Assembly: GCF_003334385.1 (NCBI RefSeq)
Contig: NZ_QOWN01000107.1
Strand: one strand, 5' to 3'
Source of the DNA: Escherichia coli
GTDB lineage: Bacteria > Pseudomonadota > Gammaproteobacteria > Enterobacterales > Enterobacteriaceae
DNA: 1,828 nt
Below the pieces are notes generated by a model. That model was given only the letters and a program-made list of their open reading frames with translations. It had not been told where the DNA came from and did no database searches. Position 1 is the first letter of the stretch. Every line of letters starts with the position of its first letter. Shown here piece by piece: positions 1-1,140 of the stretch. The translations under genes were made by a program, and so were the position numbers.

Positions 1-77
1 GCAACCAGCATTAGTGAAAATGAAATACCGACAATCACACACAGGACCTTTGCCGGCGTTATGAGTTTGTCTGACAT
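1..77 (-). CDS. 5' fragment (25 codons) of a putative i-spanin (Rz-like); continues past the left edge of the window
   Basis: ATG at 77..75 is preceded by AAGGGG (88..83) with a 5-nt spacer. Translation is MSDKLITPAKVLCVIVGISFSLMLV: a short polar N-terminus followed by a hydrophobic helix, the type II anchor topology of lambda Rz. It is the last gene in a holin-endolysin series on the same strand. Only 25 aa are visible, so the call rests on position and topology. Confidence 0.45.
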   Translation of the reverse strand, partial: MSDKLITPAKVLCVIVGISFSLMLV

Positions 78-79
78 CT

Positions 80-175
80 TTACCCCTTGATAGCAGTAAT
101 TAACTGGGCAACCACCCATAAAAACGGAATCAGCCAGACCAGCAAAAATTTCCAGTCCATTTTTATCATCTTCAT
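80..175 (-). CDS. 31-aa hydrophobic micro-ORF, predicted single-pass membrane peptide, function unknown
   Basis: My hand translation is MKMIKMDWKFLLVWLIPFLWVVAQLITAIKG; the ORF is too short to appear in the supplied track. The ATG at 175..173 overlaps the antirepressor TGA at 174..172 (ATGA coupling). The TAA at 82..80 lies 2 nt before the next gene's ATG. A 20-residue apolar core (FLLVWLIPFLWVVAQLITAI) is flanked by Lys residues. In-frame alternative starts exist at 169 and 160. It exactly fills the gap between two genes, but no homology was recognised. Confidence 0.4.
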   Translation of the reverse strand: MKMIKMDWKFLLVWLIPFLWVVAQLITAIKG

Positions 176-867
176 GCTGCGGTAGCTCTCCATGCAGCAA
201 GCAGACCAGCAATCCACTCAACACCTTTTGGGGTGAATTTAACCTGCGTAAAAGCATGACCATTGCCCGCCTCGCCCGTTTTCACGCTAAACCGCCCCGC
301 ATCCAGGTGATGCGAGTAAGGCGTCATTTTTCCAGCGAGGCGATACATTATTCCGTTCTCCAACAAAAACAGCCGGAAATCGGTTTCTTTGATACCGAGT
401 AACTTAGCAACTTCCCGGAATCCCATCAGACCAGATGCTTCAACATAGTTATCAACAAATTCAGCCTTCGGCGCTGCTATTGCCAGTTGATTTTCCAGCA
501 CTGCTTTCTGTTCAGCCAGTTTTGCCGCAAATCGCAACGCCTCAGGTAAAGTCCGGGGGATCTGAATACCATGCATCGCTTTGAGTCTTGCCAGCACAGA
601 ACGACGAACGGCCTTTGACTCCCTCATGCCAACGAGCATCATCTGGTCAAAATCCAGATCATAGTATGCCGTTCTTGTCTGGTTATTGTTTAACCGGAAT
701 TTTTTTCCGGTTCCATCAAGCTCTAGCTCATCCTCAATTTTTGCAAGAAACTTACGCGGTTCATGAGGGACTTCTCCGGCTTCTGCCCGGGCTGGATTAA
801 TAATGTTATTCAGAAAATCCAGACTACTCATGGATATTTCATGATCGACAGAAATCATCTCTTTCAT
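172..867 (-). CDS. ant: Phage antirepressor, N-terminal Rha-like region plus C-terminal KilAC (ANT) domain, 231 aa
   Basis: Full ORF in the track. AAGGA (879..875) sits 7 nt upstream of the ATG at 867. The N-terminal half (KKFRLNNNQTRTAYYDLDFDQMMLVGMRESKAVRRSVLARL) resembles the phage Rha regulatory family. The C-terminal half (PRTLPEALRFAAKLAEQKAVLENQLAIAAPKAEFVDNYV...FREVAKLLGIKETDFRLFLLENGIMYR...TPYSHHLDAGRFSVK) matches the KilAC antirepressor domain pattern as I remember it. Confidence 0.88.
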   Translation of the reverse strand: MKEMISVDHEISMSSLDFLNNIINPARAEAGEVPHEPRKFLAKIEDELELDGTGKKFRLNNNQTRTAYYDLDFDQMMLVGMRESKAVRRSVLARLKAMHGIQIPRTLPEALRFAAKLAEQKAVLENQLAIAAPKAEFVDNYVEASGLMGFREVAKLLGIKETDFRLFLLENGIMYRLAGKMTPYSHHLDAGRFSVKTGEAGNGHAFTQVKFTPKGVEWIAGLLAAWRATAA

Positions 868-890
868 GGTTGATTCCTTTTAGTGATGAA

Positions 891-955
891 CCCTGCGCAC
901 AGGAATAACCAGCCCAAAGAGGGTTAACCAGACCACTGCCGGTTATCCACCAGGG
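891..955. repeat. Long imperfect inverted repeat (potential about 65-nt stem-loop) just upstream of the ant RBS
   Basis: CCCTG (891-895) pairs with CAGGG (951-955). GGA (902-904) pairs with TCC (946-948). TAACC (906-910) pairs with GGTTA (941-945), with one bulged A at 905. The interior contains the 8-bp palindrome GGTTAACC (922-929) and CCC/GGG (913-915 / 921-923). All pairings were read directly from the sequence; no energy was computed. Confidence 0.6.
906..934 (+). repeat. Direct repeat TAACCAGcCC / TAACCAGaCC (9/10 identical, 19 bp start to start)
   Basis: The copies are at 906-915 and 925-934. A third, inverted, 6/7 copy (the reverse complement of 940-946 reads TAACCGG) forms the opposite arm of the 891..955 inverted repeat. 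Confidence 0.7.
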
Positions 956-1001
956 CTCATCCTGAAAGGTTCTTTGGTTTATTTACGCTTGTGCGAAGCG
1001 C

Positions 1002-1031
1002 AGAAATGACAAAGGCACCATTACGGTGCCT
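1002..1031 (-). terminator. Candidate Rho-independent terminator/attenuator downstream of the endolysin gene
   Basis: The minus-strand RNA reads A-GGCACC-GUAAU-GGUGCC-U followed by UUGUCAUUUCU. That is a 6 GC-rich bp stem plus an A-U closing pair, a 5-nt loop and a U-rich tail interrupted by G, C and A. The stem is short. An outer helix CGCAGA (1036..1031) / UCUGCG (1004..999) could alternatively sequester the U-tract. Confidence 0.4.
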
Positions 1032-1104
1032 CTGCGTGAAATAATGTTCCTGACTTTATTCACTTACATTTTGCCAGCTCGCAGGATTTCGTGTTATCCG
1101 CCCG

Positions 1105-1116
1105 CGTTGGCCAACG
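1105..1116. repeat. Perfect 12-bp palindrome CGTTGGCCAACG
   Basis: Read directly: the sequence at 1105-1116 equals its own reverse complement. It lies 25 bp downstream of the endolysin stop in the non-coding spacer. On the plus strand it is followed by TCATTTTT. Confidence 0.9.
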
Positions 1117-1140
1117 TCATTTTTCAGCAAAATATTCTGC

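Follow-up and report, generated by a model that had tools for sequence, protein, structure and literature searches.

A folded leader RNA in front of antirepressor genes in the late operons of enterobacterial temperate phages: a candidate translational lock with a second, covarying helix

It is in the immI region of phages P1 and P7 (c4-icd-ant) and in the prophage Gifsy-1 (IsrK-orf45-anrP) that the closest described systems are found, and these share with the leader RNA described here the placement of a structured RNA directly before an antirepressor gene and after an intrinsic terminator. In the IsrK-orf45-anrP system, the read-through mRNA is translationally inactive, with alternative structures hiding the ribosome-binding site (PMC4825925). 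The leader in question lies in a 1828-nucleotide (nt) stretch of Escherichia coli DNA (assembly GCF_003334385.1, contig NZ_QOWN01000107.1), which we call the window, and it forms the ant-proximal part of a gene-free gap of 273 nt (868-1140), the R-ant spacer, between the endolysin gene R and the antirepressor-type gene ant, all genes of the window being on the minus strand. Regarding control at the RNA level, Liao, Wu, Susskind and colleagues are said to have described in 1987 that the antisense RNA sar controls ant in phage P22, its promoter lying inside ant. For the maturation gene of phage MS2, Poot et al. reportedly found in 1997 a final fold that sequesters the Shine-Dalgarno sequence (SD) and a transient co-transcriptional fold that permits brief initiation, and in the same year, Gultyaev, Franch and Gerdes are said to have exposed mutually exclusive helices of hok through "coupled covariations", the trigger there being 3' processing and antisense RNA. 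At the level of gene organization, classical morons, as Juhala et al. reportedly described them in 2000, carry their own promoter and a downstream terminator, and mobile promoter-stem-loop cassettes (PeSLs) of T4-type phages are said to have been described by Arbiol et al. in 2010.

The leader of about 135 nt (about 865-1000, minus strand) is, to judge from homology searches, a copy of a widespread family of folded RNAs in enterobacterial temperate phages. A covariance model, R1, built from 75 class-I leader sequences, matches the window at 862-1022 on the minus strand (101.7 bits, E about 1e-22, model positions 1-155), gives 166 bits at the corresponding spacer of the Sakai prophage Sp5, and finds the P22-like copies and those of classes III, IV and V with 42-74 bits, among them the leader of P22 rha with 62 bits. 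The 17-mer GGTTCATCACTAAAAGG, taken from the 3' arm including the SD, is present exactly in more than 120 IMG/VR contigs among the matches listed, and a second pattern retrieved a divergent leader class that includes P22 rha, the distinct leaders collected being 102 altogether. By BLAST, the leader is found in 305 phage records, namely of Shiga toxin (Stx), Shigella, P22-like Salmonella and Klebsiella phages, and, among 5426 complete E. coli genomes, in 876, which have it at 2964 places altogether (median 3 and maximum 10 per genome), with an RNA feature annotated at these E. coli places in none of the listed records. The genes downstream of it encode ANT/KilAC, P22_AR_N, KilA-N, KilA-N+P63C, Rha+ORF11CD3 and AntA proteins, besides two kinds of HNH endonuclease (including HNH_3). 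The leader and its gene are co-oriented within late operons at three different positions: Stx phages have them in the R-Rz interval, P22, PS34 and UPF_BP1 in the interval from Rz to terminase, and Klebsiella phage Kp4864-1 just after a terminator and before a KilA-N gene in an apparent tail-gene region, so called by its appearance, its neighbouring open reading frames (ORFs) not having been matched to protein families. In Rfam 15, scanned with cmscan at permissive thresholds (E up to 10 for the window and up to 1 for four homologous loci, of P22, 933W, UPF_BP1 and Kp4864-1), the leader had only chance-level hits; its signature 13-15-mers are printed in no open-access paper, and keyword searches of the literature gave no description of it. 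The family is apparently undescribed and apparently separate from the known RNA controls of antirepressors.

The original prediction had treated 868-1140 as one spacer packed with hairpins, and regarding its folding this was right, given that the sense (minus) strand reaches -96.3 kcal/mol vs. -73.6 ± 5.2 for 200 shuffled sequences, all of which it beats (z -4.33, 0/200), with a z of -3.72 on the plus strand. By part, again with 200 shuffles of the minus strand, z is -3.69 for the leader (865-1001, 0/200), -3.96 for the terminator region (996-1054, 0/200), and -1.87 for the R-proximal 1055-1140, where 9 of the 200 shuffles fold as well. As a single unit, however, the spacer did not hold up, and it is, by sequence comparison, a mosaic of an R-proximal module A (1055-1140), a terminator-like hairpin (1004-1033) and the leader, because the R-proximal 86 nt and the ant-proximal part each occur without the other; the modules are, by the same comparison, independently distributed. 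Thus, a BLAST search of the 5426 genomes with the spacer gives 6673 places in 2111 genomes, of which 702 contain most of the spacer, and the remainder match only the 86 nt beside R. The terminator-like hairpin and the leader, fused to ant, are a "moron" cassette with the hairpin at its 5' edge.

On the sense strand, going from 5' to 3', the leader begins with a small hairpin P1 (CGCUU-CGCAC-AAGCG, 986-1000), followed by segment a (CAAAGAA, 970-976), which is contiguous with the anti-SD, and by segment b (CCUUUCAGGAUGAGCCCUG, 951-969), which is the long hairpin's 5' arm and opens with this anti-SD, CCUUU at 965-969. Then come segment c (GGAUAACCGG, 939-948), the apical region with segment d (CUCUUUG, 915-921), segment e (CUGGUUAUUCC, 902-912), a conserved asymmetric internal loop (CCUGUGNGA), and segment g, the 3' arm (CAGGGUUCAUCACUAAAAGG, 877-896), which ends with the ant SD, AAAGGA at 876-881. 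The closed hairpin is made of b paired with g (951-969 with 877-896) and of the upper helix c-e (939-948 with 902-912), and leaves d in its apical loop, 2 nt before e. In both the minimum-energy and the centroid folds of the window, the anti-SD CCUUU pairs with AAAGG (877-881), and for 96 of 100 distinct leaders the prediction has both SD guanines paired (P>0.8). Within class I, this hairpin is near-invariant, its few changes being all wobble-compatible or compensated and its b-g cells 100% paired. In the cross-class alignment A3, which was fitted to the closed structure and favours it in this respect, double changes are found at 22 of 29 closed-hairpin pairs and 95.3% of the cells are paired, the covariation score being 0.234 vs. 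0.118 for shuffles (0/500) and at most 0.044 for slid-partner controls. Independently of the fitted alignment, several double changes in b-g and c-e can be seen by eye when P22, class IV and the contig L229 are compared with class I; helix c-e has a compensated insertion of two base pairs (bp) on both strands in the window class, and a change of CCAG/CUGG to UCAG/CUGA in the P22-like class. P1 is present in all leader classes as GCGY-loop-RCGC, in the window copy with its register shifted by one base, and one of its pairs covaries from C-G to U-A (CG 65 and UA 4 in the class-I alignment, CG 50 and UA 5 in the cross-class one).

The functional RNA would be the sense strand, because G-U wobble pairs occur in this orientation only, where the opposite strand would have A-C mismatches. 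We read ant as translationally locked in the most stable predicted fold, because the long interrupted hairpin pairs its SD with an invariant anti-SD (CCUUU or ACCU). The proposal that the spacer holds a structured leader controlling ant translation thus appears well supported for 865-1000, where a conserved family with a long hairpin is predicted to pair the ant SD. A conserved upstream or coupling ORF inside the leader was looked for and rejected, given that the ORF starting at an internal AUG has 3-45 codons (5 in the window), terminates in any of the three frames and would encode 34 different peptides. Also rejected, by eye, was a K-turn at the conserved internal loop, where tandem G-A pairs are not seen. 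Some traits are compatible with a riboswitch, such as two exclusive conformations and highly conserved unpaired stretches (e.g., CCUGUG), and an Rfam riboswitch match was found neither in the window nor in the four homologous loci. A ligand or a protein might nevertheless be what triggers the change of conformation.

The leader contains a second helix besides the closed hairpin. The 7 nt directly 5' of the anti-SD (segment a, the 5' strand) are complementary to 7 nt of the apical region (segment d, the 3' strand), and in the window CAAAGAA pairs with CUCUUUG at six of the seven positions, in a version unique to the window class. In class I, 52 sequences have A-U at the second pair of this helix (columns 69/129), 12 have U-A and 11 C-G, and not one leaves it unpaired; at the third pair, 58 have C-G and 14 A-U. 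Across the classes, pattern parsing and model-based alignment give the three central pairs in at least seven versions with full complementarity, that is, CACAGAA/TTCTGTG, CACCGAA/CTCGGTG, CTCAGAA/TTCTGAG, CCAAGAA/TTCTTGG, CGTCGAA/CTCGACG, CAAAGAA/CTCTTTG and CCCAGAA/TTCTGGG, in addition to CACAGAG/CTCTGTG of class IV with its further compensated end pair. Compensatory changes in homologues, on which the original prediction had staked its folds, are present in the leader both in the closed hairpin and in a-d. Because a runs into b without a linker and d is only 2 nt (GG) away from e, a-d should by simple geometry be excluded from coexisting with b-g and c-e, and the RNA would have to visit two conformations. 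The closed state is calculated to be 4-11 kcal/mol more stable than folds in which a-d is enforced, and a-d belongs to the minimum-energy fold in 47 of 102 leaders when the nascent RNA ends at d, in 14 of 102 when it ends after e, and in none of the 102 when the leader is complete. This points to a transient or triggered conformer, because a-d covaries strongly and yet is never in the equilibrium fold. Segment c has, in turn, a second possible partner with which it would form a local hairpin, H2, and in one lineage this partner changes along with c.

Several natural variants touch on these elements. Seven phage contigs carry two cassettes (L042, L222, L263, L245, L243, L014 and L333 in our numbering), adjacent to each other in L042, L222 and L263 in the order gene, terminator, leader, gene, and in all seven the two copies differ in class and in their a-d version. 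Contig L047 (2499-2656) has a natural recombinant between a window-type 5' part (P1 and a = CAAAGAA) and a 933W-type interior (d = TTCTGTG), with one mismatch left in helix a-d. The class V leader of L243 (3122-3255) is short, most of the apical region being absent, and retains 5-6 nt of complementarity between its 5' flank (GAAAGU) and the loop of a small apical hairpin (ACUUUC). In P22, the annotated rha start (L127 1376-1981; NC_002371 39575-40180) falls inside the conserved leader, and the true start is likely the ATG at about L127 1445 (about 39644 of the record), preceded by AAGAAGG, which would give MNELIANHDFDFRQL, an N-terminus that aligns with those of other Rha proteins.

The terminator-like element at the 5' edge of the cassette, recognized by sequence and fold, is AGAGGCACC-GUAAU-GGUGCCUUU followed by GUCAUUU (1004-1033, minus strand). 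Taking an intrinsic terminator as a G+C-rich stem whose loop has 3-8 nt and behind which no fewer than 5 of the next 8 nt are U, the window copy has such a stem (GGCACC/GGUGCC, extendable to 11 pairs) and a loop of 5 nt, and its tail, UUUGUCAUUU, is interrupted. In the family, 68 of the 78 distinct upstream contexts have a strong hairpin with a T-run no more than 50 nt from P1, the T-run starting at a median of 22 nt before P1; the hairpin is real but imperfect in the window lineage. The elements that the original prediction had listed are where it placed them on the plus strand, namely GGCACC-ATTAC-GGTGCC at 1014-1030 with CGCAGA at 999-1004 and TCTGCG at 1031-1036, the hairpin CGCTT-GTGCG-AAGCG at 986-1000, and the long imperfect stem-loop at 891-955. 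Of its idea of a conditional terminator between R and ant, the terminator-like hairpin 1004-1033 stands and the attenuator switch is not supported: the 5' strand of the supposed outer helix varies (CGCAGA, CGCTGA, TGAAGA, CACTCA) without compensation in the 3' strand, TCTGCG, which is constant except in contig L044, and the conserved pair of mutually exclusive folds that was sought at the terminator sits in the leader instead. The gap is gene-free, as had been claimed, but not without any ORF beyond a few codons, for there is a sense-strand GTG ORF of 26 codons at 983-1063 and an out-of-frame TTG ORF at 1056-1337; the former crosses the terminator, which is the most variable stretch of the spacer. 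A sigma-70 promoter between terminator and leader was considered and discarded, none being called by the scanner and neither spacing nor sequence being conserved by eye, and the scanner found no promoter-like site on the opposite strand facing the leader or upstream of the terminator hairpin.

We consider it fairly probable that the terminator and the leader together form a translational lock with a transient open state, guarding antirepressor-type genes. The upstream terminator would bar stray transcription in the lysogen, with only the Q-modified late polymerase entering the cassette, and the closed hairpin would silence translation of the mRNA at equilibrium. In the nascent RNA, a-d and the local hairpins would form first, occupying the anti-SD arm and leaving the 3' arm and the SD free, and a ribosome could then load as the SD emerges, allowing a brief initiation until the RNA relaxes to the closed hairpin and further initiation is shut off. 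The antirepressor-type or HNH protein would thus be made in a small, brief dose although its operon is very strongly transcribed, and not at all from stray lysogen transcription, a logic that would suit genes that are harmful if overexpressed and yet placed in the most heavily transcribed operon of the phage.

Several points weigh against this translational lock, besides the fitting of the cross-class alignment to the closed structure. In the P22-like class, the main helix stops 2-5 nt before the SD, and sequestration would depend on a short ACCU/AGGU pairing across the internal loop. The a-d helix is in the nascent minimum-energy fold of less than half of the leaders, the open-state helices H1 and H2 show little covariation, and both the translational control and the kinetic pathway are what we infer. 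Regarding the terminator, the interrupted U-tract of the window copy leaves it uncalled by a simple consensus scanner, and in the 933W variant the stem contains a mismatch. Moreover, no conserved promoter was found at the leader, whose dependence on read-through late transcription is assumed from its context, and Henthorn and Friedman reportedly raised in 1995 the possibility that rha transcription is regulated by IHF, which would imply an undetected local promoter.

Other explanations of the conserved leader must be weighed along with the lock. The long hairpin might be an element of RNA processing or stability, acting as an RNase III site or as a folding insulator that separates the moron mRNA from the late transcript, and cleavage might unmask the SD, as in the phage lambda N leader, in place of a kinetic switch. 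This would agree with a closed hairpin that is a quasi-continuous duplex of 25-30 bp, with an uninterrupted 18-bp stretch in P22 rha, that is intercistronic in a polycistronic late mRNA, at several genome positions, and whose P1 could act as a protective 5' hairpin once cleaved; we nevertheless think it unlikely, given that it leaves unexplained why a-d, the helix incompatible with the hairpin, covaries most strongly, and why the pairing of anti-SD and SD is invariant. Helix a-d could also form in trans, with loop d of a locked mRNA being opened by a segment a that belongs to another RNA or to a processed fragment, and the hypervariable three central bp would then be a specificity code against cross-talk between co-resident prophages, comparable to c4 of P1/P7 and to IsrK acting on its own long isoform. 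The variation is indeed concentrated in three central pairs between constant bases, with at least seven compensated alleles, d is in the apical loop of the closed fold, all seven two-leader contigs carry two differing a-d versions, and IsrK is a precedent for combined cis and trans action at an antirepressor leader. However, a short RNA containing only a is not predicted, there being neither a terminator nor a known processing site after a; differences between co-resident copies may merely reflect that divergent repeats escape recombinational deletion; and a transient intramolecular helix accounts for the same covariation more simply, all of which makes action in trans seem quite improbable to us. 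Distinctly unlikely in our opinion, if of wide consequence, is the broader proposition that the leader is a new class of phage riboregulator in which a-d is an allele-specific address, each prophage unlocking its own gene, either in trans or by a phage-specific trigger. If this were true, the allele-specific a-d would let up to ten co-resident prophages unlock only their own antirepressor, KilA-N, Rha or HNH gene, thus adding an RNA-based layer of "immunity specificity" for late antirepressors, comparable to the c4 heteroimmunity of P1/P7, unrelated to it in sequence and far more widespread.

The spacer as a whole might instead be a conditional terminator or attenuator, or the source of an Hfq-bound small RNA that stems from R's 3' untranslated region (UTR) and ends at 1004-1033. 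A sense-strand hairpin with a U-rich tail does lie about 105 nt past the R stop, and phages without ant carry a stronger canonical terminator there after the same 86-nt tail, which is the anatomy of a 3'UTR-derived small RNA. On the other side, the outer helix is neither conserved nor compensated, about 5% of shuffles fold as well as module A, and no promoter-like site was found upstream. The Q-modified polymerase is expected to ignore the terminator during lytic growth, as is usual in lambdoid phages, and this also counts against the attenuator or small RNA. The Hfq-bound small RNA of the original prediction gained no supporting evidence, being without an Rfam hit and, in the part of the published Hfq-CRAC orphan peaks that we consulted (all rows other than EcOnc44-48, from uninduced cells), without a peak at the Sakai Sp5 spacer (1273543-1273812). 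The prediction did not err in leaving the spacer without a named prophage small RNA, given that AsxR, AgvB, EcOnc03, Esr41, PasA-D, StxS and HnrS have no Rfam hit here, and AsxR, AgvB, PasA-D, StxS and HnrS all map elsewhere by published positions and coordinates, PasA and PasC between esterase and holin genes. We rate this attenuator or small RNA as rather doubtful, on a level with action in trans. HnrS (EcOnc11) is at 4947-5308 of Sakai Sp10 (L354), downstream both of Rz and, by about 1.4 kb, of the R-ant spacer, on the strand opposite to the late operon, and is not part of the leader finding. Hardly credible to us is conservation at the DNA level, with the leader as a recombination "linker" for moron swapping and no function in the transcript. 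The same leader does stand before unrelated genes at different genome positions, recombinants such as L047 exist, and cassettes occur in tandem; but recombination hotspots give neither compensatory changes, nor one-strand tolerance of G-U, nor precise SD pairing, and a role as an exchange site is likely a consequence of the conservation and not its cause.

Apart from the lock and its cassette, module A (1055-1140, minus strand) is a conserved non-coding stretch directly after the R stop that accompanies R and not ant, and it occurs also in phages that lack ant. In the ant-less phage TL-2011c, another terminator, a canonical one, comes after the same 86 nt, and then a small membrane ORF and Rz, and the homology between ant-bearing and ant-less arrangements stops at about window position 1055. 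The module has two small hairpins with modest covariation, some of it in the first one, and it contains the bulged hairpin GCAGGAT-TTCGTGTT-ATCCGC (1081-1101, plus strand) and the 12-bp palindrome CGTTGGCCAACG (1105-1116), both just as the original prediction had given them. Its first 24 nt, GCAGAATATTTTGCTGAAAAATGA (1117-1140, minus strand), are identical directly after the stops of two genes, R and the gene of a lipobox protein (contigs L128 and L149) that is probably the o-spanin, and are followed in both contexts by homologous small hairpins. That 1117-1140 is a remnant of the R C-terminus was rejected, given that translation of the relatives shows it to be non-coding and that it also follows a different gene. 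A small RNA made from the 3'UTR is conceivable for module A. In the R-Rz gap of TL-2011c (L004, about 2289-2460, minus strand), the small ORF is unannotated, is preceded by AAAGGAGAAAGTG, encodes a hydrophobic segment (...KLSTWKYILIWLVFVIMASGYFIGQIRWW*), and ends at the start of Rz.

The rest of the window, which is about 97% identical to Stx1a-converting phages, contains on the minus strand the end of the holin gene S, R itself, encoding a SAR-type endolysin (1141-1674), the gap, and ant (172-867, with its ATG at 865-867), whose product of 231 aa matches Pfam ANT/KilAC (PF03374, E 5e-28), followed by small membrane-peptide ORFs. The Sakai prophage Sp5 has the same R-spacer-ant order, and the spacer of phage 933W is 80% identical to that of the window. 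After ant comes a 31-codon membrane-peptide ORF (MKMIKMDWKFLLVWLIPFLWVVAQLITAIKG, 80-174, minus strand), whose ATG overlaps the ant stop (ATGA), and then a second one (1-78, minus strand) that begins with MSDKLITPAKVLCVIVGISF, runs off the window and resembles a small ORF downstream of 933W ant, in which place, between ant and Rz, Sakai has the annotated genes ECs_1966 and ECs_5707.

In summary, an anonymous gap becomes a defined RNA element with testable base pairs and a candidate new family for RNA databases. The element is present in such classical phages as P22 (before rha) and 933W/Sp5 (before ant) as well as in Salmonella and Klebsiella phages, and roughly every sixth complete E. coli genome has it. 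It also offers a natural case of a helix conserved by covariation and absent from the equilibrium fold, which suggests a function during folding or upon a trigger. If our reading as a lock is right, phages would be reusing a portable "terminator plus translational lock" for risky DNA-binding and nuclease genes in the operon that they transcribe most strongly. The silencing or brief expression of antirepressor genes would be relevant to disease, given that antirepressors can turn on prophages and that induction of Stx prophages releases toxin.

Compared with the c4 and IsrK systems, the leader resembles them further in that its nucleotides are conserved and an overlapping "ORF" is not. However, it lacks their tRNA-like C4 fold, repeated a/b target sites, coupling ORF and detectable dedicated promoter, and it lies inside late operons, whereas the c4/IsrK systems are at PR' or in immI. 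The Rfam models C4 (RF01695), c4-a1b1 (RF03163) and isrK (RF01394) find their targets in Gifsy-1, used as a positive control at E up to 1, and have no match in the window (E up to 10) or in P22, 933W, UPF_BP1 and Kp4864-1 (E up to 1). Homology to the Gifsy-1 isrK locus was likewise rejected, model R1 finding nothing in Gifsy-1, the locus of which is C4-type. We take the leader as a separate family with a similar job, because there is no homology in either direction and its internal ORF is not conserved. The isrK-orf45 region of Gifsy-1 itself (L355 34131-34329, minus strand) matches the C4 antisense RNA with 69 bits and c4-a1b1 with 48 bits, in addition to isrK, and because of these matches to the C4 and c4-a1b1 models, the IsrK-anrP locus has the look of an immI c4 system of the P1 type, situated just downstream of Q.

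Regarding P22 sar, both it and the leader would exert control of an antirepressor at the RNA level, at the ribosome-binding site and in a lambdoid phage, but sar is a separate antisense transcript, while the leader structure belongs, by its wobble pattern, to the sense strand. The MS2 maturation gene and hok are comparable in another respect, given that a-d is absent from the minimum-energy folds of the full-length leader and covaries strongly, although their sequences, hosts and gene classes are unrelated to those of the leader. As in morons and PeSLs, the leader is a conserved module beside variable accessory genes, with mosaic junctions, several positions and tandem arrangement; unlike in classical morons, the cassette begins with a terminator and has no recognizable promoter, and its conserved part is what we read as a folded translational leader.

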